IMG/VR virus record: IMGVR_UViG_3300037047_000246 | Origin: a virus | Taxonomy: Duplodnaviria; Caudoviricetes | DNA: 64,000 nt | Direction: 5' to 3' (one strand) | Shown here: in pieces, positions 4,733 to 57,160 of the stretch | Numbering within the stretch: the first letter of the stretch is position 1 | Layout: each line of letters begins with the position of its first letter | Made by a program: the position numbers and the translations under genes | Notes under the pieces: generated by a model | Database searches by the model: none | The model's input: only the letters and a program-made list of their open reading frames with translations | Told to the model about the DNA's origin: nothing

Positions 4733-4756
4733 ACGCGAGTGTAATGTGGTTTGCCT

Positions 4757-6553
4757 ATGCCTTCCTTCATTTGTGGACAGCAGTTCGGGATTTTCACATA
4801 TGAGGGCGATCAAGTTCATCTGACCAGGCGTCAACTCGGGCAACGGGGTCAGTTCAGGTGTAAATGCGGGGCTTTGTCGACGCTGTCGTTCACGAGCGTG
4901 ATGTACGGCGCCTCGGCTCACTGCAGCAAATGCGCGCACACGCATCTTTTGCCAGGATCGCGTTTCGGACGGCTGACTTACGACGGAGCGTCGAAGAGTG
5001 TCGCTCCTGGTAGCACCGCCAAGGTCGAGTTTGTTTGCGACTGCGGCCGGCGCAAGTCAATAGTACTCAGGAGCGTATTAAGCGGAGCGTCCAAGAGCTG
5101 CGGCGACTGCTCCGCCATCGCTCTTACGAACGGTGCCGCCTACGGCAAGCTCACTTACGTCGGACCTGAGCTGCGTGTCAAACCGAGCTCTCGCCAGCGG
5201 GTCCAGTGGTCGTGCTCTTGCGGACGAAGCGTCAGGCGCACAGTGAAAAGCGTACTGAGCTCTGCTGGCAGCGCCGGACTTAGGGGGTGCGGCAAGTGCA
5301 GCGAAGTTCATTTGGAGCCTGGCGACAAATATAAGTGGTTCGAGTATGCAGGGCCTTCTGCGGACGTGTTGCCCAGCAGCACTCAGTGCTGCCGCTTCAA
5401 GTGCAGGTGCGGAGCAGTCAAAGACTACCAGATTCAGCATATCACTCGCGGCCAAAAGACGTGCGGGGAGTGTTTCAACTCAGCGCTTGACTGGTACTCG
5501 AGAAACCGCGATCTGCTGCGTTCAGCGCAGTCGTTCCTTCGGCAGGATTTTCCTGGCGGCGGACTGATCCCTCTGGCAAACATCGTCAATGCCTCTCAGC
5601 CGTTCGACGCCAAATGTCCACTTTGCGGCTCCACGTACAGGCCGCGACTCAGAGACATAAAACGCGGTGTTTCTTTGTCGTGCGGATGCACAAACTTCGC
5701 CGTATCCAGTTTGAATTTGCAACTGTTGGACTGGCTCAAGTCTATTGGCGTGGACGCGGTGCCTGAGCATTCGGTTGGCGGAAAAAGATTCGACGTGGCT
5801 GTGCCAGCATCGAATTTGCTCATAGAAATAAACGGACTCAGATGGCACTCGATGCCAGGAGCCAAAACCAGGGACCTGTCGAAGCACAGGCATGCCGCGT
5901 CCTTCGGCTTCGAAACCCTTATGTTGTTTGAAGACGAGTGGGTGAACAAACGGCAGATCATGTGCGGCATCATCGCCAACAGGTTGAGGATCAACGAGGC
6001 CCGCTGCGCAAGGGCATCCAAATGCGTGGTGGAACGCGTGCCTGTGGCTGCAGCCGACTTGTTTTACGACAGTCACCACTACATCGGCAAAGCAAAAGCC
6101 GGACTGAACTATGCCGCGTTCCTTGGCGGCGTTCAAGTGGCCTGCATGTCGTTCAAACGCCCCACAAGGCAAACTTCCAGACATGAGTGGGAGCTCGTGC
6201 GCATGGCGTCTTCACGCGAGGTCCGCGTGCACGGGGTGTGGTCGAAGCTCATGCACGCTTTTGTGTTGGACAAAGCTCCGGCGTCCGTTGTATCATTTTC
6301 AGACAATCGTCTTTTTACAGGCGGCGTTTACTCTCGCATCGGATTCACTTTGGATGGCGATGTGCCTCAGGACTATTACTGGACCAAGCAGCGGTCTCGC
6401 TGGCATAAATCTGGGCTCCGAAAAACGGATTCGGAGAAAGCCACGGGTAGCACCGAAACTGCACTCAGGACAGCCCAGGGGTACCGGAAGATCTGGGATC
6501 TAGGCAAAAAACGGTGGGTTTGGAGAGACTCATGTCAGAAATCAGATTTTTAA
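4757..6553 (+). CDS. Hef-like putative homing endonuclease: Cys-rich repeats + DUF559/PD-(D/E)xK-like nuclease + GNAT-like C-terminal domain
   Basis: Repeats RFGRLTY...FVCDCG...SCG; nuclease RFDVAVP..LLIEINGLRWH; C-terminal HHYIG...WELVRM...SKL...VSFSDNRLFTGGVYSRIGF...DYYW. Confidence 0.7.
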   Translation: MPSFICGQQFGIFTYEGDQVHLTRRQLGQRGQFRCKCGALSTLSFTSVMYGASAHCSKCAHTHLLPGSRFGRLTYDGASKSVAPGSTAKVEFVCDCGRRKSIVLRSVLSGASKSCGDCSAIALTNGAAYGKLTYVGPELRVKPSSRQRVQWSCSCGRSVRRTVKSVLSSAGSAGLRGCGKCSEVHLEPGDKYKWFEYAGPSADVLPSSTQCCRFKCRCGAVKDYQIQHITRGQKTCGECFNSALDWYSRNRDLLRSAQSFLRQDFPGGGLIPLANIVNASQPFDAKCPLCGSTYRPRLRDIKRGVSLSCGCTNFAVSSLNLQLLDWLKSIGVDAVPEHSVGGKRFDVAVPASNLLIEINGLRWHSMPGAKTRDLSKHRHAASFGFETLMLFEDEWVNKRQIMCGIIANRLRINEARCARASKCVVERVPVAAADLFYDSHHYIGKAKAGLNYAAFLGGVQVACMSFKRPTRQTSRHEWELVRMASSREVRVHGVWSKLMHAFVLDKAPASVVSFSDNRLFTGGVYSRIGFTLDGDVPQDYYWTKQRSRWHKSGLRKTDSEKATGSTETALRTAQGYRKIWDLGKKRWVWRDSCQKSDF

Positions 6554-17344: not shown

Positions 17345-19201
17345 ATGGCCAAAGACCTATCAGAACTGGGCATTCCGCAGTCCATAGTTAAAAATCCAGG
17401 ACAGGGCCCATTCAAAGGCAGCACAGTACTGACCGTCGTGTGCGCTTGCGGCGTCGAGATAGAGCTCAAAGTCAGCTCCATTCTTCGCACGATGCGGCGC
17501 GTCGGTCACTACAGGTGTCTGTCCTGCGGGATGCAGGCCAAACACAAAGATCCTGCTTATGCGAGGAAGCAGAGAGCCGGATCTTCCGACTCGTGGTCTC
17601 AAGAGCGCAGATTGCGCCAGTCATTGATATCCAAAAAGATGTGGACCGACGATAACTTCAGACTCCGGTTGACTGAAGCGTCGACCAGCGCTTGGGCAGA
17701 AGATGGTAAAAGGCAAAAGGCTTCCAAATTTGCCATCGGACTATGGCAGGACAGTGAGTACGTCGCCAAGCATGCACTTGCCCGCAGCACCGATGAGGCC
17801 CGAGAAACTCGTTCCAACGCCGCCAAAGCAGTGTGGCGTCGACCTGAATATGCTGAACAGCAGTTGGCAATCAAGGCGTCGGCAGAGCACGTAGGAATCC
17901 AGCGCAGACTCGCGCTGGAGCGGTTTGATAACCCCGAATATCGCCAGCACATTGCCGAATCTTTGCGCACCTACTGGTCGGATCCTGTGCTCAGAGCAGA
18001 AATGTCGGCTCGAGTGCTGTCTTGGTGGGATGACCCGGCGTACCGGGAAAAGCAAGCTCGCGCCGCCGCAAGTCCGGACTTGATCGCAGTTAAGTCCGAA
18101 AATGCAAGAGCGCAGTGGCAGAAGCCTGAGACCAGGCAGGCCATCATTGACGGCATCAAGAAGGTGTGGAGGGACCCGGCCTATAGAGCTCGCGCATCGC
18201 AGATAGTCAAAGCGCTGTGGCAAAATGATGAATTTAAGAAGAAGCAAGCTGTTGGCAGGGCAGATATGCTCGCGAACGGCAAAGACAGCATACTGGAACG
18301 CACCGCCCAGATCTTGCTGGACTCACTGAAGATCCCATACGTGCGTCACCACGTGGTTGGGTATTTTGAATTCGATCTGCTCATTCCGTCGCACAATGTG
18401 CTTGTTGAATGCAACGGCGAGTACTGGCATTCGATGCGTAAGGATCGCGACGCTGCCAAGTTCACATATGTCGACACATACTTCCCTGAGTACAGCGTCT
18501 TGTATCTGTGGGAGCGCGACTTCCTCAACCCGAATCTGATTCGCCATAAGCTTTTGCGTGCGCTGTTTGGCGACGATGGTGGGCACCACGGAGAATGCGC
18601 AGATTTCAGCTTCGAAGACCTGGAAATTAAGCTTATGGACCCGAGAGCCAAAGCAGACAAGTCGTATTACTCCTATGCTGAAGAGTTTCTTCAGTCTTTT
18701 CACTATGCCGGGTTTGGCAGGTCGGCAAAGGCGGCGTACGGCGCGTACCTTGGCGACACTTTGATCGGCGTGTGCAAATTTTGTCCGCCCATAAGGGCAG
18801 AGGTGGCCACTTCGATGGGTATGGCGCAGAGCCAGGTGCTGGAGCTAGACCGGTTCTGCATCCACCCAAGCTACCAGAAGAAGAACTTTGCTTCCTGGCT
18901 CGTTTCCAGATGCGCAAAGCTGGCTTTCTCAGCCCACCCCGGCGCGGCTTGCCTGGTCAGCTTCGCAGACTCCACGTTCGGGCACGTCGGCACCATCTAC
19001 AAAGCGGCAAACTGGAAGCAGGTTCGCATTGTGCCGCCGGACTACCACTATGTTAGCCCGGAGGGCTTCGTCGTGCACAAGAAGACGCTGTACGACCACG
19101 CTTCTCGCGTAGGGCGCAAAGAGGCGGAGTATGCGGCGCAGTTTGGCTACGCGAAAGCGTACGGCAAGTCGAAGACCAAATTCCGATTCGATAGGCCGTA
19201 A
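17345..19201 (+). CDS. Hef-like putative homing endonuclease with W-x-DP-x-YR helical repeats, DUF559-like nuclease and GNAT-like domain
   Basis: About ten W.(D/N)P(A/E)YR repeats; FEFDLLI..HNVLVECNGEYWH; HYAG...LELDRFC...SWL...VSFADSTFGHVGTIYKAANW. Confidence 0.7.
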   Translation: MAKDLSELGIPQSIVKNPGQGPFKGSTVLTVVCACGVEIELKVSSILRTMRRVGHYRCLSCGMQAKHKDPAYARKQRAGSSDSWSQERRLRQSLISKKMWTDDNFRLRLTEASTSAWAEDGKRQKASKFAIGLWQDSEYVAKHALARSTDEARETRSNAAKAVWRRPEYAEQQLAIKASAEHVGIQRRLALERFDNPEYRQHIAESLRTYWSDPVLRAEMSARVLSWWDDPAYREKQARAAASPDLIAVKSENARAQWQKPETRQAIIDGIKKVWRDPAYRARASQIVKALWQNDEFKKKQAVGRADMLANGKDSILERTAQILLDSLKIPYVRHHVVGYFEFDLLIPSHNVLVECNGEYWHSMRKDRDAAKFTYVDTYFPEYSVLYLWERDFLNPNLIRHKLLRALFGDDGGHHGECADFSFEDLEIKLMDPRAKADKSYYSYAEEFLQSFHYAGFGRSAKAAYGAYLGDTLIGVCKFCPPIRAEVATSMGMAQSQVLELDRFCIHPSYQKKNFASWLVSRCAKLAFSAHPGAACLVSFADSTFGHVGTIYKAANWKQVRIVPPDYHYVSPEGFVVHKKTLYDHASRVGRKEAEYAAQFGYAKAYGKSKTKFRFDRP

Positions 19202-19380
19202 GCTTTCTGCGAGCGAGTGTACTTTGCTAGTGACCCGGGGGGATCTCTCGCTACCCGGCTCTGATCTTTCAAAATTGACTCTGCGCACACGGTGCTACAC
19301 CTGTGCAGGGACAACCGGACGACAACCTCTCGCAAAGCGTGCTACGGTGCACGTTCCGGACTTTGTTTGAGAATATGGCT
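19202..19380 (+). promoter_or_regulatory. CRISPR leader
   Basis: Non-coding region next to the conserved end of the array; contains TTGACT at 19275; degenerate repeats are at the opposite end. Confidence 0.65.
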
Positions 19381-20220
19381 ATTGCAACGCCTAAAGATTG
19401 CTCGATACGTCGAGACTTGTCCGAGAGGCTGCAAAAAGTGGAGCCGACTCAGGGATTGCAACGCCTAAAGATTGCTCGATACGTCGAGACTTATACGGCT
19501 GACCGGGCAGACTGCGCCGCGCCACTATTGCAACGCCTAAAGATTGCTCGATACGTCGAGACGCTCCAGTGGGGCGTGGCTCGCCACGTTTCCCATGTAT
19601 TGCAACGCCTAAAGATTGCTCGATACGTCGAGACGCCCTATCGCTCTCTCGTTCACACCCATCCTCCTAATTGCAACGCCTAAAGATTGCTCGATACGTC
19701 GAGACCTTGCTGTGCCGCAGCAGCTGGCGGCAGCTGCGGCCAAATTGCAACGCCTAAAGATTGCTCGATACGTCGAGACATTCCGCAGCCACTTGACTCG
19801 CCTGTCAAGCTCCACTCATTGCAACGCCTAAAGATTGCTCGATACGTCGAGACGATTCCGCGCACAGAGCCCTAGCCTCAGCACGGGTGTAATTGCAACG
19901 CCTAAAGATTGCTCGATACGTCGAGACCCTCCATCACCACAAGCAACATCGCCACTGCCCGCACATTGCAACGCCTAAAGATTGCTCGATACGTCGAGAC
20001 CCTAGCCTGGATTTGAGCATGGCGATCGCCGAACGCGAGATTGCAACGCCTAAAGATTGCTCGATACGTCGAGACATAGCCTCAATCTCTGGCCTATCAT
20101 CGAGCGCAGATACTGCAACGCCTAAAGATTGCTCGATACGTCGAGACAAGCACATGCTACCCCGCTGTAACCGTGCGTCGCAAAATTGAAATACCCAAAG
20201 ATTGCTCGATACGTCGAGAC
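19381..20220 (+). CRISPR. Type V (CasPhi/Cas12j-type) array: 12 repeats, 11 spacers of 35-39 nt
   Basis: 36-nt repeat ATTGCAACGCCTAAAGATTGCTCGATACGTCGAGAC starts at 19381, 19455, 19527, 19599, 19670, 19744, 19818, 19892, 19965, 20040, 20112 (T2>C) and 20185 (5'-degenerate). 3' hairpin CTCGA-TACG-TCGAG. A remnant lies at 20235-20253. Confidence 0.98.
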
Positions 20221-20303
20221 ACGGAACCGAGGACGATCTCGAGATGTCGAGACACGTCGACCAGACCCGCGGAAATTTGACGCGGTCCGTTGTAATGCTA
20301 ATC

Positions 20304-22595
20304 ATGGCAAAAGCGAAGACATTGGCGGCGCTGCTGCGCGAACTTCTCCCTGGCCAGCATTTGGCACCCCATCATAGGTGGGTGGCGAACAAGTTGCTGA
20401 TGACGTCAGGTGATGCCGCGGCTTTTGTGATCGGCAAGAGCGTCTCCGATCCTGTTCGGGGCTCCTTCAGGAAGGACGTGATCACGAAGGCCGGCAGGAT
20501 TTTCAAAAAAGATGGGCCGGACGCCGCCGCCGCCTTTCTGGACGGAAAATGGGAAGACAGGCCGCCGAATTTTCAACCCCCCGCGAAGGCAGCCATCGTG
20601 GCCATCAGCCGCTCTTTCGATGAGTGGCCAATCGTCAAAGTCTCTTGTGCCATTCAGCAGTACCTGTACGCGCTGCCAGTTCAAGAGTTTGAGTCTAGCG
20701 TGCCGGAAGCTAGAGCACAGGCTCACGCGGCGTGGTTTCAAGACACTGGCGTGGACGATTGCAACTTCAAGTCTACGCAGGGCCTGAACGCGATCTTCAA
20801 CCATGGCAAGCGCACTTACGAAGGTGTGTTGAAGAAGGCACAAAACAGGAATGATAAGAAAAACCTCCGCTTGGAGCGCATCAACGCCAAGCGCGCGGAA
20901 GCCGGACAGGCTCCTCTGGTCGCTGGCCCTGATGAGTCTCCTACAGACGATGCCGGGTGTTTGTTGCATCCGCCAGGCATAAATGCAAACATATACTGTT
21001 ATCAGCAGGTTTCCCCGAGGCCTTACGAACAGTCATGCGGCATTCAGCTTCCGCCGGAGTATGCCGGATATAACCGGTTGTCGAATGTTGCGATTCCACC
21101 GATGCCGAATCGCCTGGATATCCCTCAAGGCCAGCCGGGATACGTGCCGGAGCACCACAGGCATGGTATCAAGAAGTTCGGCCGAGTCCGCAAGAGGTAT
21201 GGCGTGGTGCCAGGACGGAACAGAGATGCGGATGGCAAGCGCACGCGCCAGGTTCTAACCGAAGCCGGCGCCGCAGCCAAAGCCAGAGATTCGGTTCTCG
21301 CTGTGATCCGCATCGGTGATGACTGGACAGTAGTCGATTTGCGCGGCTTGCTGAGAAATGCGCAGTGGCGCAAGCTTGTGCCAGATGGCGGCATCACTGT
21401 CCAGGGTCTGCTTGATCTTTTCACTGGCGATCCGGTGATCGATCCTCGGCGCGGCGTGGTGACTTTCATTTACAAGGCTGATTCTGTAGGGATACATTCC
21501 GAGAAGGTTTGTCGTGGTAAACAGTCGAAGAACCTGCTGGAGCGCCTATGTGCAATGCCTGAAAAAAGCTCGACACGTCTAGACTGCGCGAGGCAAGCAG
21601 TGGCTCTAGTGTCTGTGGACTTGGGGCAGCGCAATCCAGTCGCAGCAAGATTTTCCAGAGTTTCCCTCGCAGAGGGGCAACTTCAGGCGCAGCTGGTCAG
21701 TGCGCAGTTCCTTGACGACGCGATGGTGGCAATGATCCGAAGCTATCGCGAGGAGTATGACCGCTTCGAATCGCTCGTGCGAGAGCAAGCAAAAGCGGCT
21801 TTGTCGCCCGAACAACTGAGCGAGATTGTCAGGCATGAAGCGGACTCAGCAGAGTCGGTTAAATCCTGCGTCTGTGCGAAGTTCGGTATCGATCCGGCCG
21901 GACTTTCGTGGGATAAAATGACATCGGGTACATGGCGCATTGCCGATCATGTTCAGGCGGCAGGCGGCGACGTCGAGTGGTTCTTCTTCAAAACTTGCGG
22001 CAAAGGCAAAGAAATCAAAACGGTGCGACGCAGTGATTTCAACGTGGCGAAGCAGTTCCGGCTGAGGCTCTCGCCCGAAACTCGCAAAGACTGGAACGAT
22101 GCCATTTGGGAATTGAAGCGTGGGAACCCTGCGTATGTCAGTTTTTCTAAGCGCAAGTCGGAATTCGCTCGCCGCGTCGTGAATGATTTGGTGCATCGGG
22201 CGCGGCGCGCTGTTCGATGCGACGAGGTCGTCTTTGCAATCGAAGATTTGAATATCTCTTTCTTCCACGGCAAAGGCCAGCGCCAGATGGGGTGGGATGC
22301 CTTTTTTGAAGTGAAACAGGAGAATCGATGGTTTATTCAGGCGCTGCATAAGGCGTTTGTCGAGCGAGCTACGCACAAGGGCGGCTATGTCTTGGAAGTG
22401 GCTCCTGCCAGGACGAGCACGACTTGTCCGGAGTGTAGGCATTGTGATCCGGAGAGCAGGCGTGGTGAGCAGTTCTGTTGTATCAAATGCCGTCACACGT
22501 GCCACGCGGACTTGGAAGTGGCCACATTCAATATCGAGCAGGTGGCGCTTACAGGTGTGTCTTTGCCGAAGCGCCTTTCAAGTACGCTTTTGTAG
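20304..22595 (+). CDS. cas12j: CasPhi (Cas12j) type V effector nuclease, about 763 aa
   Basis: RuvC-I VSVDLGQRNP; RuvC-II FAIEDLN; Zn ribbon CPEC..C/CIKC; RuvC-III ADLEVATFNI. CasPhi-typical segments include PPGIN, RLDIPQGQPGY, DLRGLLRN and KQENRWFIQALHKAF. Adjacent to the array. Confidence 0.93.
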   Translation: MAKAKTLAALLRELLPGQHLAPHHRWVANKLLMTSGDAAAFVIGKSVSDPVRGSFRKDVITKAGRIFKKDGPDAAAAFLDGKWEDRPPNFQPPAKAAIVAISRSFDEWPIVKVSCAIQQYLYALPVQEFESSVPEARAQAHAAWFQDTGVDDCNFKSTQGLNAIFNHGKRTYEGVLKKAQNRNDKKNLRLERINAKRAEAGQAPLVAGPDESPTDDAGCLLHPPGINANIYCYQQVSPRPYEQSCGIQLPPEYAGYNRLSNVAIPPMPNRLDIPQGQPGYVPEHHRHGIKKFGRVRKRYGVVPGRNRDADGKRTRQVLTEAGAAAKARDSVLAVIRIGDDWTVVDLRGLLRNAQWRKLVPDGGITVQGLLDLFTGDPVIDPRRGVVTFIYKADSVGIHSEKVCRGKQSKNLLERLCAMPEKSSTRLDCARQAVALVSVDLGQRNPVAARFSRVSLAEGQLQAQLVSAQFLDDAMVAMIRSYREEYDRFESLVREQAKAALSPEQLSEIVRHEADSAESVKSCVCAKFGIDPAGLSWDKMTSGTWRIADHVQAAGGDVEWFFFKTCGKGKEIKTVRRSDFNVAKQFRLRLSPETRKDWNDAIWELKRGNPAYVSFSKRKSEFARRVVNDLVHRARRAVRCDEVVFAIEDLNISFFHGKGQRQMGWDAFFEVKQENRWFIQALHKAFVERATHKGGYVLEVAPARTSTTCPECRHCDPESRRGEQFCCIKCRHTCHADLEVATFNIEQVALTGVSLPKRLSSTLL

Positions 22596-22637
22596 GTGCG
22601 CATAGAGTGTGAAACCTCCGGACTGAGGACTCTCTAG

Positions 22638-22799
22638 ATGCTTCTGTACTACTATTTGACCCTGGCGCTGTTCGCTGGCGTCGCGCTTGGCGCGGCACTC
22701 ACAAACTTTGCGATGAATGCGCGGATGCGCGAGAACGCGGCCAACGGGCGGCGCATGTGCGCTGGCGGCAGGCTCTACGAAGTCAAAGATGTGATTTGA
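22638..22799 (+). CDS. Small single-pass membrane protein, 53 aa (not in the ORF track)
   Basis: GAGGA RBS 8 nt upstream; MLLYYYLTLALFAGVALGAALTNFAMNARMRENAANGRRMCAGGRLYEVKDVI. Confidence 0.6.
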   Translation: MLLYYYLTLALFAGVALGAALTNFAMNARMRENAANGRRMCAGGRLYEVKDVI

Positions 22800-22857
22800 G
22801 GCTGGCGCTGCCCGCCGCATTTCGCTGCCGCTGAATCGTTAATCTTCTGGCCTGTGC

Positions 22858-23757
22858 ATGGCACTGACAGCTTCAGGCGGCGGATTCACTTTCAGTTTGG
22901 CTTCTGTCGGAGGCGTTTGGAGGTGGACCGTTGTGGCCTCCAGCCTCAACACTCCGAGCCAAAATTACCAAATTCAGGATGTGGCGACCCCCTGGGGTCC
23001 GCTTCACGTTGCGGCGGCTCCGCTTCCAGCTGACGTGGTTGCATCTATGGCTCAGTCCATAATCGAGGTGGGGGACCAAATAAAGCCAGGGATGGCTTTG
23101 GCGTCTTCTTTGACTTCCTTCTCCATCGGCATCACCGAAGGCGACGCCAGAAGGTCCGCGGGAACTGTCCAGGTGAGGAACGATGGGGGATTCGGGTCCT
23201 TCATGTCCGTTGCGGCCACGTCTGACGTGCCATGGCTTTCAGTGCTGACTCCGGCCACCGCCGGCGTGACCAAGGGTCAGACTGCCTCGTTCAGCTTCGA
23301 CGTGGTGCCTGACTCCATGTTGGCGTTGCAGTCGCCCTACGTGGGCCACATCAGGGTGCAAGATTTGAATGACCCGGCTTCGTTCATAATCGCCACAGTG
23401 ACTGTGCTTGTGTTGCCGAGGCCGCAGATTCAAGTCAATACGAACGCCGTTTCTGTTGTTTGGTCGATTAGTACTCAGACGCCGTCTGTAGCCAACCTGG
23501 TCGTTACTAACAGTGGGCCCGCCACCTCTTCGTTGAACTGGTCAGCTACTAAGCTGGCTGGATCCGCATGGCTTTCTGTCTTGCCGTCTTCTGGCGGACC
23601 GCTGGACTCAGGGGCTACGGCCACTTTGGCCGTGTCCGTGGTTGCGGCTTCGGTGCCGCAGTTGGTGGGGAGCTACGTGGAGACTGTCAGAATTGCGTCC
23701 CCCAACGCTTCTAATGGATACGTTGACGTTCTTGTGACCCTGACTGTCGAACCCTAA
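22858..23757 (+). CDS. BACON/Ig-like domain virion protein
   Basis: Two beta-sandwich repeats with ATSDVPWLSV and AGSAWLSV, VTNSG, YVGHIRV and YVETVRI. Confidence 0.7.
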   Translation: MALTASGGGFTFSLASVGGVWRWTVVASSLNTPSQNYQIQDVATPWGPLHVAAAPLPADVVASMAQSIIEVGDQIKPGMALASSLTSFSIGITEGDARRSAGTVQVRNDGGFGSFMSVAATSDVPWLSVLTPATAGVTKGQTASFSFDVVPDSMLALQSPYVGHIRVQDLNDPASFIIATVTVLVLPRPQIQVNTNAVSVVWSISTQTPSVANLVVTNSGPATSSLNWSATKLAGSAWLSVLPSSGGPLDSGATATLAVSVVAASVPQLVGSYVETVRIASPNASNGYVDVLVTLTVEP

Positions 23758-29347: not shown

Positions 29348-32300
29348 ATGCCGAGCACGGAGAAGAAGCAGCAAAGCGAGCTAGTCAGCGTAGTTGACAG
29401 CTTTCTGGATGAAAAGAACGTCGGCAAAGATGGCGAAGGCATTGAGTTCCTTACCATCATCGAGTTCATAGACAGGTTCAAGCTTCTGCCGAACGGGCTT
29501 TTTCCCGTGCAGAAGTTCATTCTGAAGCTGTACTACAACATCCCGCTGGACGATAAAGACAAAGTCATAAAGATCACTGACAGATTCAACACCAGAGTCA
29601 TTCATGAGATGACAGAGGTGCAGTATCTGAAGTATTTGTATGATCAGGGCAGATGCAACATAGCAGCGCAGGACGGCAACGTACGGCATGAGCTCGTGCT
29701 GGTGCTTGGACGAAGAAGTGGCAAATGCGGAGATATAGAGTCTCGCGTTGTCACCACATCCGGACTCAGAACTCTTGATGAGCTTTTGCGCGATAGCGGA
29801 GCAGATCGGACTAAGACCGGCTGGCATAAGCTGCAGGTCGGGATAGTACAACAGGGCGGTAGGATGGCCGTAACTGACGCTATCTATTACGGCGGCAGAC
29901 AAGCTGTGCGGCGCATTTCTACGTATTGCGGGTACGGGCATGCGATTACGCCAGAGCACCGGCTGAAAGTGATGGAGGACTCCGGGAACATTGTTTGGAA
30001 ATATGGACACGAGCTGCGCGAGGGAGATTTTGTTGGCGTCAATAGGTCATGCCAACTATGGCCCGATTCTTATGTGGACATCTCTGGTTTTGTTCCCAAG
30101 TACACTCGGGTAGCCGACATCAATCGTAAGTCGCACATCAGAACGGGGCGCGTTGTTCGTCCAAGGTCCAGCTGGGGCATTCGTTTGGACGAGTCTTTGG
30201 GCGAGTTCCTTGGCATACTTACTGGCGACGGAACGTGGTCGTGCGGCAAATACAAAGGCTTGATCGCAGTCACAGGAGGCTGTGAGCAGTTTAGGCCTCA
30301 TGTTGAGGGACTGTTCTCCAAATTTTTGGGGGGTTTTCATCTCAAGCGCATCAAAAAAGACAAAACCACCTGCGAAGTCAGTCCGTGGACTGTTTACTTC
30401 GGAAGTGTCAAAGACCGAGCGTTTCTTGACTCCATTGGCTTCAGGTTGTCGGTCACCAAAGCGACGAAATCGGTGCCGTGGCCGGTATTTCAATCGCCAA
30501 AGAGCGTGGTTGCCGCTTACTTGCGGGGCTTGTTTGAAACTGATGGCGGAATAGAAAAAGGCACGTCGATCACGATGTGCTCACATTCCAAGCAGCTGTG
30601 CCGAGACGTCCAAGATTTGCTGCTGAATTTCGGAATCGTGTGTCGAGTCAAACCGAAATATAACAAAAAGTTCAAGTCCACCAATTACGTCTTGAATCTT
30701 CTTGGGAGTATTTCCAAGAAGATATTCGCTACGGACATAGGGTTCATTACCCCGCGCAAAAACGCTGCGTTGGCAAGGTCTTTAGTGAACGCTTCATCTG
30801 GATGCTCAGACACCGAGTCGGTGCCGCATCTGCGCGGCAAGCTCAGGCAGCTTCGAGATAGTATCCCCAAATCCACAAACAACATGCCTGGTCGATGTTT
30901 TCGACCGCGTTCTGAGATCAAGGAGCTCATGGGGGACGCGGCGAAGCCGGGAAGCGCGGAAGCGCTGTCATACAGCCGGTTGCAACATATTCTGGATTTT
31001 TCTGCCAAGTGGGGCGCATCTCTGGAGTTGCGACGCGAACTGCAAGACGTCGTGGATTCCAATTACTTCTGGGACCCCATTGTGTCGGTGCAGGACGACG
31101 AAGTCGAGGTGGCCGATCTTAGTGTGCCCGACGGCGAGTCGTATGTCGCCGCCGGCATGACCAACCATAACAGCACAATATCAGCAATAGTCGCCTCGTA
31201 CGAGCTGTATAAGCTGCTGCGTCGTCGAAACCCGCAGCTGCACTACGGCATTCCGGCCAACAGCGAAATTCGCGTGCTGTGCATAGCCAACGACAAGGAG
31301 CAGGCATCGATCGTGTTCGGTGACATGTCTGGATATGTCGACAACGTCGATTATTTCAAGACTTCGCGCACCAATCAGACCCAGACGTTCATGCGGTTCC
31401 AGACGGATAACGACAGGCAGCGGTACGGGACCAGCAAAGGCGCCAGATCCACAATCACGGCCACGTTCAAGAGCTCCATCGCGAAGGGCCTCCGCGGCCG
31501 CGGCATTATTTGCTACATATTGGACGAAGTTGCCTTCTTCGTTGATAACGGTAAATGTGAACGGCTGTTCAGTATAGTCCAGACTGATTCTGGTCCGGTT
31601 AGCTTGGAGCAGATTCTCGCCGAGAACGATATCGACAAATCCCGGATTGGCTGGACTGACATTCGCCCATTTGAGGTAGCGCAAGAATGCGGTCGCAGGG
31701 CCTGGGCTACGCGCATTTACTACGGCGGGATACAGAAGACTCGCTACATCACCACTAAGAGTCGTTACTCTATCGAGCCCACTCCAGAACATCGTCTGAA
31801 GGTGATGTCCCTGAATGGGAACATTGAGTGGAAGTACGTCCGGGATATTGCTCCTGGTGATTTTGTCGGTATCAATCGTGAGACCAGGTTATGGCCATTA
31901 CAGGAGTTCGATTGTTCTCGCGAGTCGATCGGAATAGCTCCTACGCGCCTCCATAGGGTCCCGTTTCCCTCGTTCATAGACCCCGGTTTTGGCGAGTTCC
32001 TAGGCATTCTGGTGGGCGGTGGAACTTGGAGTGCTGGGAAAGACAAGTCATTGGTCCAGGTAACTGGAGGGTGCGAACAGTTTCTCCCGCATGTTGAATC
32101 TCATTTTCTCAGATACGTCGGTGGCTGCTCCGTTAGGCGGAAGACGGCACATGAGCACAGCACTTGTGAAGTTTCTACTTGGTCAGCAGTAAAGCACTCT
32201 CTCCCGTTTCGGACTTTCCTCGATCGCTTAGGCTACAGACTAGACGCGAAGAAATCGACTAAATCCGTCCCGTGGGTAATTTTTAAGAGTTCAAAGCCAG

Positions 32301-34129
32301 TCGTAGCCGCATTCTTGCGCGGTCTGTTTGAGACTGGTGGCAGGCTAGAGCATGGGGGAAGCGCTATTTCGTTTGCGACTGCCAGCAGTAAGCTGGCCAC
32401 GGAAGTCCAGCTTCTTCTTTTGAACTTTGGCATTACCTCGAGCGTACACGTCAAAACCAACAAGAATTATCCTGGTCGGAACTATTACTGCTTGCGTGTC
32501 ATCGGTCATGAATCCCGCAAGATCTTTGCCCGAGAGATTCGTTTCATTACCGAACGCAAGAACACTGACCTGGACCATGGGGCGGGATCGGGTCGTGATG
32601 CTTCCAATGTCATCCCGAATCAGTATGCGCGGCTTCGACGAATTCTCGAGTCTGTGCCGCATGGCTCGACTCAGAAGAAAGGCGATGGCCCCAGGATTCG
32701 CATAACCAAGCTGATTTCCAGCTCTGCTGATCCTGAACGACGAAGCGCCATTTCGTACGATTCGGCCAGGCGTCTGGTTAGTCTTGGACGTGAGCTTGGT
32801 GCAGATGTCGTCGCACTCGACGAACTGGACGCCATCTGTCGGGCTAATTACTTCTGGGACTCAGTAGTTTCGGTCAAGGAGAGCGAGGGTGAAGTAGCGG
32901 ATTTGTTAGTGCCGAATGGGCATGAATACGTCGCGCAGGGCATGACGAATCATAACTCGTCAGCAGATCAGGTTTATCGCGCTGTCAATCCGTCTATCGC
33001 CCAGTTCTCCCCCAAGGACCCGAAGAACAAGCATAGGGCCACCGGCCCATCAGATGGCCGCGCCATCATGATTTCGTCTCCAGATGCAAGAGACGGGTTT
33101 TTCTACCATCAGTACCAGCTAGCGCTCAGCGGCGGAGTTGCTGCCAAAAACATGCTGATGTTGCAGGCGCCAACTTGGGAAGTCAATCCGACGCTTGACA
33201 AGAGCTACTACGAAGTCGAGTTCAACAAAGATCCTCGGTCGTTCATGACCGAGCATGGCGCCGAGTTTTCTGACCGCGTGCGAGGCTGGATCGAAGACTC
33301 CAGGGACTTGATCGAATGCGTGCGCCCTGGGCTCAGGCCTCTGGTGCGAGGAGCGCCAAGGGAGCTGTTTTGGGCTGGTGTGGACTTCGGGATTGTGCGC
33401 GACGGCACCGCCATTGCTTTGATACACTTTGTCAACGGCAGACTGGAGCTGGCATATCATGAAGTGTGGTATGCCGGCAAGAGTTGGAAGACTGCTAATC
33501 CGCATTTGTCTGTGCCGCCTACGGAGTACGCCAAGAACTTGGAAGGCGTATCTCGCCTCGATGTGGCAGAGATCGCTGAGTGGTTCCGCATTCTGTCGTC
33601 AAGGTTCTACATAGACAAAGGGGTGTTCGATCAGTGGGCAGGGCCGATCTTTGAGCAGGAGCTGCACAAGCGAGGTCTTAAGCAGTTTGAAATGAGAAAT
33701 TTTTCTGTGACAGACTCGTCGCATGCGTACCACATAGCCAAAATGTGCATGTTTGGACGACAACTGAGCTTGTATGACTACCCTCTGCCGCAGCAGATGG
33801 AGTCAGATTCAACAATGATGAAGCACTCCCCGCTCATATCTGAAATGCTGGAGCTTCAGGCTACGTCAGGTGGCAAAAACATAACTGTAGTGGAAGCTCC
33901 CAAAGTTGCAGGCAAACATGATGACCAGTCCGACGCCTTGGTCCGCGGTGTTCTGCTGGCTGCAGAGTATATCAAAGCCCATCCTGGCGTTTTGGAAATA
34001 AGCGCCAACCACATCACGTCGCCTGTTCAGCAGGTTGCTGCCCCATCCAGTTACCACAGGTACCACAGCATGCGAGCTCGCATGCACGGCGGTCCGGACA
34101 AGCACAGGACGGTCACTGCTCGAAGATAG
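29348..34129 (+). CDS. terL: Terminase large subunit with two inteins (mature protein about 644 aa)
   Basis: Walker A LGRRSGK|S; Walker B ILDEVAFF; MISSP; nuclease AGVDFG and HDDQSDA. Confidence 0.92.
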   Translation: MPSTEKKQQSELVSVVDSFLDEKNVGKDGEGIEFLTIIEFIDRFKLLPNGLFPVQKFILKLYYNIPLDDKDKVIKITDRFNTRVIHEMTEVQYLKYLYDQGRCNIAAQDGNVRHELVLVLGRRSGKCGDIESRVVTTSGLRTLDELLRDSGADRTKTGWHKLQVGIVQQGGRMAVTDAIYYGGRQAVRRISTYCGYGHAITPEHRLKVMEDSGNIVWKYGHELREGDFVGVNRSCQLWPDSYVDISGFVPKYTRVADINRKSHIRTGRVVRPRSSWGIRLDESLGEFLGILTGDGTWSCGKYKGLIAVTGGCEQFRPHVEGLFSKFLGGFHLKRIKKDKTTCEVSPWTVYFGSVKDRAFLDSIGFRLSVTKATKSVPWPVFQSPKSVVAAYLRGLFETDGGIEKGTSITMCSHSKQLCRDVQDLLLNFGIVCRVKPKYNKKFKSTNYVLNLLGSISKKIFATDIGFITPRKNAALARSLVNASSGCSDTESVPHLRGKLRQLRDSIPKSTNNMPGRCFRPRSEIKELMGDAAKPGSAEALSYSRLQHILDFSAKWGASLELRRELQDVVDSNYFWDPIVSVQDDEVEVADLSVPDGESYVAAGMTNHNSTISAIVASYELYKLLRRRNPQLHYGIPANSEIRVLCIANDKEQASIVFGDMSGYVDNVDYFKTSRTNQTQTFMRFQTDNDRQRYGTSKGARSTITATFKSSIAKGLRGRGIICYILDEVAFFVDNGKCERLFSIVQTDSGPVSLEQILAENDIDKSRIGWTDIRPFEVAQECGRRAWATRIYYGGIQKTRYITTKSRYSIEPTPEHRLKVMSLNGNIEWKYVRDIAPGDFVGINRETRLWPLQEFDCSRESIGIAPTRLHRVPFPSFIDPGFGEFLGILVGGGTWSAGKDKSLVQVTGGCEQFLPHVESHFLRYVGGCSVRRKTAHEHSTCEVSTWSAVKHSLPFRTFLDRLGYRLDAKKSTKSVPWVIFKSSKPVVAAFLRGLFETGGRLEHGGSAISFATASSKLATEVQLLLLNFGITSSVHVKTNKNYPGRNYYCLRVIGHESRKIFAREIRFITERKNTDLDHGAGSGRDASNVIPNQYARLRRILESVPHGSTQKKGDGPRIRITKLISSSADPERRSAISYDSARRLVSLGRELGADVVALDELDAICRANYFWDSVVSVKESEGEVADLLVPNGHEYVAQGMTNHNSSADQVYRAVNPSIAQFSPKDPKNKHRATGPSDGRAIMISSPDARDGFFYHQYQLALSGGVAAKNMLMLQAPTWEVNPTLDKSYYEVEFNKDPRSFMTEHGAEFSDRVRGWIEDSRDLIECVRPGLRPLVRGAPRELFWAGVDFGIVRDGTAIALIHFVNGRLELAYHEVWYAGKSWKTANPHLSVPPTEYAKNLEGVSRLDVAEIAEWFRILSSRFYIDKGVFDQWAGPIFEQELHKRGLKQFEMRNFSVTDSSHAYHIAKMCMFGRQLSLYDYPLPQQMESDSTMMKHSPLISEMLELQATSGGKNITVVEAPKVAGKHDDQSDALVRGVLLAAEYIKAHPGVLEISANHITSPVQQVAAPSSYHRYHSMRARMHGGPDKHRTVTARR
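29726..31171 (+). mobile_element. Intein TerL-1 (482 aa) with LAGLIDADG homing endonuclease
   Basis: Starts C(GDIESR), ends HN|S; motifs GILTGDG and GLFETDG; inserted in Walker A. Confidence 0.92.
31556..32956 (+). mobile_element. Intein TerL-2 (467 aa), paralog of TerL-1 with degenerate LAGLIDADG motifs
   Basis: Starts C(ERLFS), ends HN|S; motifs GILVGGG and GLFETGG lack the acidic residues. Confidence 0.9.
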
Positions 34130-34415: not shown

Positions 34416-34760
34416 TTGATGTCAGCCTCCAAGCCGATTTCTGCCAAAAAAGACTTCGACCGAGTTCCGGTCGACAACATCTTCGATAAGTACTTAGCCA
34501 TATCGAAGAAGCTGTCTGACGTGTCTGTGGCCATCGGTCAAGTTGTTGAAGAGATAATTTCACTGGACCGAGAGATACGTCAGTGCGATCCCGCCAACAA
34601 GCTCATGATGTCGCAGAAGCTCCGAATGAAGGTATTGATTGGAGCTATCTTTCCAGTCCGTCAACACATCGACAGGCTCACGACCAGAATGAACGCTTGT
34701 GCGGCTTTCCGGGAAGCTGTTGTGACAGACGCGTCGCGTGCTGATCCTGCTTTTGAATGA
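34416..34760 (+). CDS. Hypothetical coiled-coil protein
   Basis: 114-aa ORF overlapping the portal start. Confidence 0.55.
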   Translation: MMSASKPISAKKDFDRVPVDNIFDKYLAISKKLSDVSVAIGQVVEEIISLDREIRQCDPANKLMMSQKLRMKVLIGAIFPVRQHIDRLTTRMNACAAFREAVVTDASRADPAFE

Positions 34761-37651
34761 GTAAGACAATGGGCAAAAAAGTTGGCGTGCGGCCTGGTGG
34801 TGCAGTCGGCAAGTCTGTCGCTCGTGTCGACAGTCAGCAGGCAATGAAAAAGCCGCTGACCAAACTTGAACGCCAAGCTCGCAGAGAGGCCAAAAGTCAG
34901 TCAATAAGGGTAGCGGCGTACTACGGCGACATGGGTAACTCAAGTTCCATGGCCATCGGACACGCCGAACAGAATTTTTACAGCCCTCAGCTGTCTTCAG
35001 ATTTCTTGGAGCTGCCTCAGGCAGAGCGAGAAAAGAGAGAGCTGTTCAGGTTCTGGTATACTTCGCATCCAATAGTCGGCGCGTCCATCGACTTCCACTG
35101 CTTTCCGCCCGGGGCCCCGGTAATGATGAAAGACGCCACGGTCAGTCCCGTGGAATCTCTGAAAGTTGGTGATGAGGTCGTCAACGGGTTCGGGGAACCA
35201 ACTAAGGTTGTTCAGACTTTCAAACACCATGTATGCGGGCCTATCACTAGGTTCAAAGTGCGCGGCGTGCAATCGCATATCGATTGCACCGAAAACCACC
35301 CGTTCCTTGTCTATCGCTCTTCCCAGATAGACTGCAAACACAGGAAATGCGCCAGTTCTGACCCTGGAAAGCCACGATTTGTGTTTGCAAGAGATCTGCA
35401 GGTGGGCGACTATATCTGTTCACCTTCTCTGGTCAGTGCCAAGCCTGCGTTCAATAAGCGTCAGTTGCGCTTGCTTGGGTACTATGCGGCTGAAGGGTCG
35501 ATATCATACACGAAGTATCTCAAACTTGATAGAGTTGTGTTCACACTCGGTGCTAGCGAGTTCAATACCATTGCCGATGAAATCGCTGAAGCGTTCAGCG
35601 CCGAGTATGCGCACCCGGCGCGAAAACGTGTTAGGAAAGATTCCAGCGCATGCGAGGTCAGGTGCTACAAGAAAGACTTCGCCGAGTTTTGTCACAAGCA
35701 CGTGGGAAGCGGCTCCCACAACAAACAACTTAGTCTAGACATAATAGACTCCCCCAGGGAAGATATACTTGAATTTTTGGGCGCATATTGGAATGGTGAC
35801 GGGAGCCTCACGAAGAACGGGTACGTCGCCACCACGATATCCAAACAGTTGGCTCATCAAATATTCGCTTTGGCTCTAAAAGTTGGGTGGGCGCCCACAT
35901 TGCACGTGGTGAAGCCAAAACGCCGCGCTAGCGGTTTTAAGCCTAAGGGGGACGTATATAGGGTCATCGTCCCGTACCGTGTGCACTCCGAATTTGCCAA
36001 GTACGCCAACTTTGTGCAAGACGGGTACACCGCCAAGTCCACTCGCGAGTATCAGGTCCGAGTTGACTCCAGCGTGCTAAGGCGGGTCGAAGAAGTCGAG
36101 ACTGTTCAATATGATGGTTTTGTTTACAATATCGAAGTTGATGGCGAAGGAGACCGCAAAAGTTACGTCGCATATGGGTTGGCTACCCACAACACCGATG
36201 TGCCTATGTCCAAGATTCGTCTTGCGGCTCCGAAGGGCAAGGACATAAAGCGCAACAAGCAGATTTTGCACTTCTACGAAAACATGTGCAGGCGTTTGCG
36301 CCTATTCCAAACGCTTTACGACGTGACGCATGAATACTGGCTTCACGGCAACGTGTTCATATTTTGCGAAGATCACGACCTGTCCGACGAGCTGCCAGAA
36401 GAGCTCATGGGAAACGGGTCCGGCGAGGATATGGACGCAGTGGGCGAGATTACTGCAGACGGCGTAGCTGTGCTGAAGCAGGAGCCCAGCGAAGCCCAAG
36501 ACAAGTCCAAGCTGATTCAAAAGTTCGTGCAGGACAAATATGAGGGATGGCACCGTCTGCAAATTTTGCCGCCCGAACAAGTGAAGCTGGAAATCTTCCA
36601 GTACACCAATCGCGTGCAGATGGAGCTGGTACCTAGCGAGAAAGATCGCCTGGCTGTCACTAAAGCTCAAGAGCAAAACGATCCGGAAGCAAAAAGAATC
36701 GCTGACGACATTCCTGATCAAATCAAGGACAACTTGCTAAGCGGCCAGCCGATTCCGCTCAACGCGAGCCCGTACGACGATTTCCTGTGCTCGTCGTTCT
36801 GTTACCATCTGGCGCACAAGCGCTCGCCTTACGACGACCGCGGCGTCTCCATCCTGGAAAGGTGCCTCAGGTCGCTGCTGTATCAGGATAAGCTTCGCCA
36901 GGCCCAGACCTCCATCGCTTCTCGCGCGATGACGCCCAAGCGCATCATTTGGGGCGACAAAATGTCGCAACCCGATGTTGATGACCTCAGAGACCAAATA
37001 GATCAGGCACTAATCGACCCTGACTTCACCATCATCACCAACTTTGAGGTTCATTGGGACGAGATTGGGGCTAGAGACAGGCTGTTGGATCTCAATACGG
37101 AGTATGAGATCACCAACAAGATGCTGTTCATTGGCTTGCGCATCACCGAATCGATGCTGACTGGCGAGTCCACTTACTCGGGCGAGCGCATCCATCTGGA
37201 TGTCATGAACACCATGTACCTGCTCTACCGAGAGACGCTCACCGAATTTGTGGAGCAGCAGCTGTTTGCTCCAGTGGCGGAGAAAAAGGGCTTCTGGGAG
37301 GAAGACGAGTTCGGCAACAGGCAGCTTTTGTATCCTAGGCTCCAGTTCACTCGTTTGGCCCTGCGCGACAACACAGAGATGCAGGACTTCATGTTCAATC
37401 TGTATGGGAAGGGGTCCATGCCGATTGACTACATTTACGATTTGTTGAACATCGATTCTGAAAACGCGCACGAGCTGCTCAAGAGAGATATGTTCGGTCC
37501 GAAGGACGCGACGTTCAACGAGGTATTGAGGTCCATGTACCCGAAGATAGGCGAGAAACTTGCTGAAGACAGCAACGCTACAGGCAAGGTGGCTGGCAAC
37601 ATCGGGCTGACTGTCTCCGACAAGGAGGGAGACAGGTTCGGCAAAGAGTAG
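34757..37651 (+). CDS. Portal protein with one intein (mature protein about 599 aa)
   Basis: Position after terL; HPIVGASIDFH|TDVP; YWLHGNVF; RGVSILERCL; helical HK97-type portal pattern. Confidence 0.8.
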   Translation: MSKTMGKKVGVRPGGAVGKSVARVDSQQAMKKPLTKLERQARREAKSQSIRVAAYYGDMGNSSSMAIGHAEQNFYSPQLSSDFLELPQAEREKRELFRFWYTSHPIVGASIDFHCFPPGAPVMMKDATVSPVESLKVGDEVVNGFGEPTKVVQTFKHHVCGPITRFKVRGVQSHIDCTENHPFLVYRSSQIDCKHRKCASSDPGKPRFVFARDLQVGDYICSPSLVSAKPAFNKRQLRLLGYYAAEGSISYTKYLKLDRVVFTLGASEFNTIADEIAEAFSAEYAHPARKRVRKDSSACEVRCYKKDFAEFCHKHVGSGSHNKQLSLDIIDSPREDILEFLGAYWNGDGSLTKNGYVATTISKQLAHQIFALALKVGWAPTLHVVKPKRRASGFKPKGDVYRVIVPYRVHSEFAKYANFVQDGYTAKSTREYQVRVDSSVLRRVEEVETVQYDGFVYNIEVDGEGDRKSYVAYGLATHNTDVPMSKIRLAAPKGKDIKRNKQILHFYENMCRRLRLFQTLYDVTHEYWLHGNVFIFCEDHDLSDELPEELMGNGSGEDMDAVGEITADGVAVLKQEPSEAQDKSKLIQKFVQDKYEGWHRLQILPPEQVKLEIFQYTNRVQMELVPSEKDRLAVTKAQEQNDPEAKRIADDIPDQIKDNLLSGQPIPLNASPYDDFLCSSFCYHLAHKRSPYDDRGVSILERCLRSLLYQDKLRQAQTSIASRAMTPKRIIWGDKMSQPDVDDLRDQIDQALIDPDFTIITNFEVHWDEIGARDRLLDLNTEYEITNKMLFIGLRITESMLTGESTYSGERIHLDVMNTMYLLYRETLTEFVEQQLFAPVAEKKGFWEEDEFGNRQLLYPRLQFTRLALRDNTEMQDFMFNLYGKGSMPIDYIYDLLNIDSENAHELLKRDMFGPKDATFNEVLRSMYPKIGEKLAEDSNATGKVAGNIGLTVSDKEGDRFGKE
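35099..36193 (+). mobile_element. Portal intein (365 aa) with LAGLIDADG homing endonuclease
   Basis: Starts CFPPGAPV; CTENHPF; LGYYAAEG; GAYWNGDG; ends VYNIEV...THN|T. Confidence 0.92.
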
Positions 37652-57069: not shown

Positions 57070-57159
57070 GCCCTCGTAGCCCAGCGGTCGAAGGCAGGCG
57101 GCTTTAAACCGTCCACGAGCGAGAGCTCGTCACCGGGGGTTCGACTCCCTCCGAGGGCA
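57070..57159 (+). tRNA. tRNA with UUA anticodon (ochre suppressor), long variable arm, Tyr-like
   Basis: Acceptor GCCCTCG/CGAGGGC with discriminator A; anticodon stem GGCGG/CCGTC, loop CT-TTA-AA; variable stem ACGAGC-GAGA-GCTCGT; T arm GGGGG-TTCGACT-CCCTC; CCA not encoded. Confidence 0.9.
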
Positions 57160-57160
57160 C

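Follow-up and report, generated by a model that had tools for sequence, protein, structure and literature searches.

The window that we analysed, a stretch of 64,000 nucleotides (nt) from the IMG/VR virus record IMGVR_UViG_3300037047_000246 (Duplodnaviria; Caudoviricetes), contains between positions 19202 and 22595 a compact CRISPR-Cas locus, which had been predicted from the letters alone to be a minimal phage-encoded CasPhi (Cas12j) system. The source phage genome is 362,524 bp long and consists of a single record that has direct terminal repeats and is rated complete; the phage is a tailed phage and its genome is huge and complete. The elements of the locus all lie on the + strand. They comprise a non-coding stretch of 179 nt (19202-19380) between the stop of a Mom-like gene (19201) and the first repeat, a CRISPR array (19381-20220), a gap of 83 nt (20221-20303) that runs from the last repeat to the start codon and is probably the 5' untranslated region (UTR), and the gene cas12j (casPhi; 20304-22595).

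The array is formed by 12 repeats of 36 nt (ATTGCAACGCCTAAAGATTGCTCGATACGTCGAGAC), which are spaced at 71-75 nt and enclose 11 spacers of 35-39 nt, every one of them different. Repeats 1 to 10 are identical, repeat 11 has a single change, and repeat 12 has four, all within the 5' half. The common ending that had been noticed for the 12 repeats, GATTGCTCGATACGTCGAGAC, is present in 12 out of 12, and a pattern of this kind cannot be the product of chance. Degenerate repeats usually mark the end of an array that lies opposite the leader. Because the decayed repeats sit at the opposite, cas-proximal end, we infer by this rule that 19202-19380 represents the leader end, which agrees with the leader of the original prediction. 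The handle sits 5' of the guide in Cas12j systems, and the array is therefore read on the + strand, like cas12j itself.

Folding of the repeat gives a hairpin whose 5-bp stem (CUCGA/UCGAG) is capped by a UACG tetraloop, with AC on its 3' side. All five pairs of this hairpin are kept in four related IMG/VR loci (L001-L004), where three of the five have been changed on both sides in a compensatory manner. The repeats of Cas12j systems have been described as having a central ATTGC, a 5-nt stem, a tetraloop and a 3' GAC (PMC9917002), and all four features are found in this ~36-nt repeat. An ungapped comparison with the Cas12j-2 scaffold printed in PMC11048056 revealed identity at 23 of the 36 positions. 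The divergence that had been claimed for the 5' half of the repeat thus holds only partly, considering that 12 of its 18 positions match the Cas12j-2 repeat.

The cas12j gene runs without interruption from the ATG at 20304 to the TAG at 22593-22595 and encodes a protein of 763 amino acids (aa), which is inside the range of 700-800 aa reported for the hypercompact Cas12j proteins (PMC8298400). Other gene callers place the start at 20244, which would yield 783 aa; the start at 20304 was preferred because the family members align from there and because the protein of the nearest relative, encoded on the partial contig L010, also begins with MAK and has the same N-terminal segment. The three intact catalytic motifs of the predicted ~763-aa RuvC effector were confirmed: the triad D439, E647 and D736 (RuvC I, II and III) is located in columns that are invariant across 63 family members. 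The same invariance applies to the cysteines of the zinc ribbon (C708, C711, C726 and C729), all of which are intact here. The two ends of the protein are less usual. Ahead of the first conserved helix there are 53 residues, where the family median is 22 (~31 aa longer). The extension, which is of low confidence in the structural model, adjoins the first helix, on the side of the protospacer-adjacent motif (PAM). Only 8 residues follow P755, the last proline that is conserved, compared with a median of 40.5 in the family, and shorter tails are present in just 2 of 62 relatives. A tail-like coding remnant was not found downstream of cas12j in any frame. The idea that the N-terminal helix had been duplicated in tandem was rejected as unsupported: BLASTP gave no match, 130 of 2000 shuffles equalled the local alignment, and the DNA carried no signal.

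The sequence, the predicted fold, the anatomy of the repeat and the content of the locus (no adaptation genes, no trans-activating CRISPR RNA (tracrRNA), a huge phage) all support the assignment to Cas12j/CasPhi (type V-J), and not to TnpB, Cas12f or another V-U clade. In a sequence search of the PDB the protein matched CasPhi-2 (7LYS, E 7.6e-189), Cas12j-SF05 (8IEW, 2.7e-172) and CasPhi-3 (7ODF, 1e-151) over residues 54-757, followed by Cas12f proteins with E values no better than 4e-5, for residues 675-740 alone. The only Pfam match was the Cas12f1-like_TNB zinc ribbon (PF07282), at 34.1 bits versus a cut-off of 26.3. The NCBIfam models of TnpB, Cas12f2 and Cas12e scored 13-28 bits versus cut-offs of 100-450 and only for residues ~616-749, including guided_TnpB with 28.4 bits versus 100 and Cas12f2 with 28 versus 450, both at the C-terminus only. 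An AlphaFold2 model that was built on the family alignment reached a mean predicted local distance difference test (pLDDT) score of 89.4 and a predicted template modelling (pTM) score of 0.85. When this predicted structure was compared to the PDB by Foldseek, ranks 1-15 were all taken by CasPhi/Cas12j structures, with template modelling (TM) scores of 0.77/0.82 for 7LYT (CasPhi-2) and 0.74/0.80 for 7ODF (CasPhi-3), and other Cas12 types remained at 0.3 or less. In the maximum-likelihood tree the protein is nested within the family as the sister of L010, with full support. The Cas12j/CasPhi identity put forward in the original prediction was thus borne out, and TnpB or another V-U clade did not emerge as the closest relative, as the matches to Cas12f/TnpB are at ~1e-5 and restricted to the last ~70 residues.

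The prediction had noticed no cas1, cas2 or anti-repeat in the window, and this holds for the genome as a whole. Searches in which control genomes did score gave zero matches to Cas1, Cas2 and also Cas4 across the complete 362.5-kb genome, which contains no second CRISPR array, no copy of the handle on the opposite strand and no orphan guide handles elsewhere besides a remnant at 20238 (see below). The longest anti-repeat genome-wide was 12 nt, a length at chance level (E 0.44), and Rfam yielded zero matches in the locus. Judged from the DNA sequence, the system would therefore do without a tracrRNA. The locus has an independent counterpart in a Logan assembly (L005, SRR13051708), which shows 99.99-100% identity, has the same flanks and junctions and is identical over the leader stretch 19202-19380. 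In L005:5271-5379 repeat 1 is joined straight to spacer 11 and repeat 12, with the loss of 10 repeat-spacer units; this collapsed array is most likely an artefact of the assembler and not a natural deletion. As L005 is the sole other assembly and its array was collapsed by the assembler, it is uninformative on spacer turnover.

We consider it likely, with a probability of about 0.85, that the locus represents an intact and self-contained type V-J CRISPR-Cas12j (CasPhi) system that is carried by a complete 362.5-kb tailed phage. This reading is further favoured by the facts that ten of the 12 repeats are identical, the open reading frame (ORF) is unbroken, the catalytic and zinc residues are kept, the same locus is found in L005, and there are phage genes on both sides. 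The anatomy of gene and array, the family membership, the catalytic and zinc residues and the predicted fold could be read directly from the data. The same applies to the absence of adaptation genes, of an anti-repeat and of self-targets, where no spacer match longer than 15 nt was found in the phage's own genome.

Cas12j proteins that have been studied biochemically need no tracrRNA, process their pre-crRNA (the precursor of the CRISPR RNA, crRNA) by RuvC and recognize a T-rich PAM (PMC8298400). From the characterised relatives we infer that crRNA processing depends on RuvC, which PAM is used, that DNA is cut, that array and gene are co-transcribed, and what kind of targets there are; on this basis the system could work as follows. 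Transcription of the array would come from the leader side and follow the + strand, probably together with that of cas12j. The 763-aa protein would bind the 3' hairpin of each repeat and trim the pre-crRNA by its single RuvC site, without the help of a tracrRNA. The crRNAs, composed of the repeat handle and ~18-20 nt of spacer, would then guide the protein to double-stranded DNA (dsDNA) beside a PAM that is likely T-rich, where the same RuvC site would cut. Lacking Cas1 and Cas2, the phage would be unable to gain spacers on its own. The targets would most likely be rival phages or further mobile DNA that shares the host, and not the phage itself. Both the crRNA processing and the PAM-dependent cleavage of dsDNA by this particular protein are predictions by analogy.

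A number of observations weigh against such a functional system. No recognizable Shine-Dalgarno sequence precedes the ATG at 20304, and no sigma-70-like promoter was seen in the leader (19202-19380). The basic, disordered C-terminal tail, a feature that is common in the family although not defining, is absent, and the activity of Cas12j3 was lowered by deletion of its last 39 residues (PMC8298400). Four residues of Cas12j3 contact the PAM, namely K26, K30, Q123 and Q197 (PMC8298400). In the alignment, Q123 and Q197 are kept as Q159 and Q234 and K30 is conservatively replaced by R65, and K26 corresponds to T61 (K62 is adjacent), so that one of the four PAM-contact positions is not conserved. 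Moreover, the scans that we performed yielded no protospacer for any of the 11 spacers, and hence no PAM could be read. The best spacer matches among the INPHARED phages and PLSDB plasmids had E values of ~0.2-0.9 only, and four other Cas12j-carrying phage records gave no significant spacer match. Exact full-length matches were absent from IMG/VR for spacers 1 and 3-10, and exact matches were absent from the JGI metagenome contigs and GTDB genomes for spacers 1, 2, 5 and 7. For IMG/VR the spacers were paired as IUPAC-merged patterns. Targets with mismatches would escape such exact matching; spacer 11 was compared with local collections only.

The gap between array and gene raises the less likely possibility that, besides defence, Cas12j acts on its own expression. 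Terminator-like sites are absent from 19000-23000, and hence from the region between array and cas12j, which makes it plausible that the two form a single transcript. Within the gap, at 20238-20253 (+), lies a remnant of the repeat (CTCGAGATGTCGAGAC), which starts 17 bases after repeat 12 and 33 nt past the hairpin of that repeat and ends 50 nt before the ATG. It has kept the 5-bp stem and the 3' GAC; the loop is new and ATTGC is missing. In L010, the sole close relative, two elements of the form ...TCGTCGAGAC are found 33 nt apart and 62 nt before the start codon. These elements (AATTCGTCGAGAC, L010:742-787) have no array upstream on that contig. In the related IMG/VR phage L004 five copies of the 3' hairpin half of the repeat occur just 5' of cas12j (L004:4590-4828), 45-59 nt apart, and a normal array of 8 repeats lies downstream of the gene; the truncated handles could be a mini-array with truncated repeats.

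The explanation would be that Cas12j binds or cuts the array-cas12j transcript at the decayed repeat 12 and the remnant in the 5' UTR (20185-20253) and thereby sets the level of its own mRNA. It would account for an array that precedes its gene in the same orientation without an intervening terminator-like site, for the perfect 5-bp stem and 3' GAC of the remnant at 50 nt from the ATG, for the truncated handles directly 5' of cas12j in L004, and for the two elements of L010, whose 33-nt spacing and similar distance to the ATG were kept while the remaining intergenic DNA diverged. On the other hand, the hairpin's 5' arm is missing from the L010 elements, the 83-nt gap shows no stronger folding than shuffled controls (z -0.67), no handle precedes the gene in L001-L003, and the pseudo-guides that follow repeat 12 and the remnant have no partial target in the phage genome. 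In fact, ordinary decay of the old end of the array is sufficient to explain the pattern. We therefore regard such self-regulation as rather unlikely, although if true, 20185-20253 would be a conserved site at which Cas12j, by binding or cutting, governs its own mRNA. The N-terminal extension and the missing tail may, judging by the protein comparison, set apart a sub-lineage whose PAM or activity has changed. A joint reading, in which a self-regulatory site at 20185-20253 on a single transcript is combined with a sub-lineage that these two features possibly mark, is equally doubtful.

Somewhat less probable again is that the protein is a weakened or repurposed CasPhi, which has no tail and an array frozen by the lack of adaptation genes and may only bind DNA or RNA, or is decaying, and does not serve as a cutting defence. 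Arguments for this explanation are the missing tail, in view of the effect of tail deletion on Cas12j3, the absence of a detectable target for any spacer, the decay of the cas-proximal repeats and the apparent frameshift in the gene of L010 (near position 1385). On the other side, at least two other family members have very short tails, and the short tail is hence a natural variant; unmatched spacers are usual for the arrays of environmental phages; ten repeats are identical; and the frameshift in L010 is possibly an assembly error. Moreover, the catalytic and zinc residues are all intact and the 763-codon ORF is unbroken. The third possibility, a TnpB/Cas12f-like or other V-U nuclease for which the array is no more than a neighbour, or bacterial DNA misassembled into the phage contig, can draw on the weak C-terminal matches to the Cas12f2, TnpB and Cas12e models and the Cas12f structures, and was ruled out considering the low scores of those models, the full-length and fold matches to CasPhi only, the same junctions in the independent assembly and the complete genome with its terminal repeats.

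The intact Cas12j system that we favour is a divergent additional ortholog within a well-described and large family, and not a new kind of system. In public data the family comprises ~112 clusters at 50% identity (E <= 1e-30), and among 1.84 billion cluster representatives no other full-length protein shares its 50%-identity cluster. Identity is 46-48% for the closest full-length relatives and ~60% for one partial contig, L010. A comparison with CasPhi-2 (Cas12j-2) of Biggievirus Mos11 (7LYS, 7LYT, 7M5O) shows the same order of domains, a similar fold with the TM scores given above, the same RuvC D/E/D and CxxC...CxxC motifs and a similar length (757 versus 763 aa). In both systems the 36-nt repeat carries ATTGC, a 5-bp stem, a tetraloop and a 3' GAC, and both are located on huge phages and lack a tracrRNA and adaptation genes. 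They differ in the proteins, which are ~45% identical (for the CasPhi-2 cluster of Biggievirus Mos11), in the ~31 extra N-terminal residues before the PAM-side helix and the lack of a basic tail here, and in the sequence of the repeat stem, which differs by compensatory changes. With Cas12f (type V-F) and TnpB, the transposon ancestors, the protein shares the C-terminal core of RuvC and zinc ribbon (PF07282); the similarity is confined to the last ~130 residues and the scores are far under the family cut-offs. Cas12f, moreover, acts as a dimer with a long guide that contains a tracrRNA (PMC8298400).

The original prediction had left room for a match to a catalogued variant, and this was compared for the solved structures and for a recent series. 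In a 2025 preprint (bioRxiv 10.1101/2025.09.16.676532) IMG/VR was mined for the same type of locus and Cas12j-11 to -18 were named. These also derive from huge-phage contigs in IMG/VR, are 40-50% identical to the reference Cas12j, and have repeats of 36 bp and spacers of 35-38 bp. Locus L001 lies on the contig of Cas12j-12 (IMGVR_UViG_3300035182_002586). Its repeat ends in GATTGCTCGGTACGCCGAGAC, two bases off ours, whereas the proteins are 45% identical. In L001-L004 the array is downstream of the gene, whereas here it is upstream. Peptide and repeat strings of our locus are absent from the sequence supplement of the preprint, and the ortholog is not among Cas12j-11 to -18; neither is it 100% identical to any solved CasPhi. 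The same strings had no match in the main text of the searchable literature. The exact protein is on record from JGI/IMG only, in addition to a Logan variant with a longer start. A single-protein query of IMG/VR returned no close relatives, and tblastn against cultured-phage records gave no match.

The nearest relative remains L010 (ENA ERZ27313107 k141_1044100), with 58-60% identity over residues 11-540. The N-terminal extension and the paired ...TCGTCGAGAC elements 33 nt apart are common to both. Unlike our locus, L010 has no full array upstream, and its contig of 2.5 kb does not include the C-terminus of the protein.

As very small genome editors, CasPhi/Cas12j proteins are of practical value, and the material for engineering grows with every divergent ortholog from nature. 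Considering the identity of at most 48% to full-length relatives, the natural absence of the tail and the extra N-terminal segment by the PAM-reading helix, the PAM preference and the activity of this protein could differ. In addition, the locus offers a clean example of a minimal system, with one array, one gene and zero adaptation genes in a complete phage of 362 kb, and it sharpens the question of how such phages obtain their spacers. The existing knowledge of the Cas12j family is unchanged by it.

We also searched for a host or adaptation partner via the repeat. The 20-nt handle (ATTGCTCGATACGTCGAGAC) has zero matches in IMG/VR and occurs once in the GTDB genomes, a collection of 596 Gb in which about one match is expected by chance, and the approach was therefore rejected as uninformative. 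The match (L011:5054-5073, - strand) is in JAIQEW010000026.1, a Terriglobia metagenome-assembled genome, where it is flanked by a 7-nt inverted repeat and lies 14 nt before a gene start. That genome has no Cas12j and no second copy of the handle, and the contig has no genes in common with the phage.

The genes upstream of the leader encode a RecD/Dda-like helicase, a clamp loader, a 5'-3' exonuclease, a sigma factor and then the Mom-type GNAT-domain protein; downstream of cas12j there are five ORFs without a family match, then the large subunit of the terminase (29348-34129, +, 1593 aa) and then the portal (34757-37651, +, 964 aa, with intein/LAGLIDADG domains). The position that had been described as exactly between the replication and head modules can thus be maintained as near that boundary and not as exact, in view of the five ORFs before the terminase. 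Both the terminase large subunit and the portal genes appear to be interrupted by inteins.

The Mom-like gene directly 5' of the leader (17345-19201, +) encodes a protein of 618 aa whose C-terminal part is a Mom-type GNAT domain (Pfam PF25680, E 1e-21). A paralog-like protein of 600 aa is encoded at 4751-6553 (+), and both match PHROGs 559 and 3339. The two proteins point to DNA modification genes that adjoin the phage's own nuclease, and a candidate question raised by this neighbour is whether modification shields the phage from Cas12j.

Immediately downstream of cas12j, and in the same frame, an ORF of 53 aa (22638-22799, +) follows after two TAG codons (22593 and 22635). It has a GAGGA ribosome-binding site and a hydrophobic N-terminal half, and the gene caller called it in L005 as well. 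The window finally contains a suppressor tRNA of 91 nt (57070-57160, +) with the anticodon UUA, which reads UAA; since the stop of cas12j is a TAG, this tRNA should not affect its translation.

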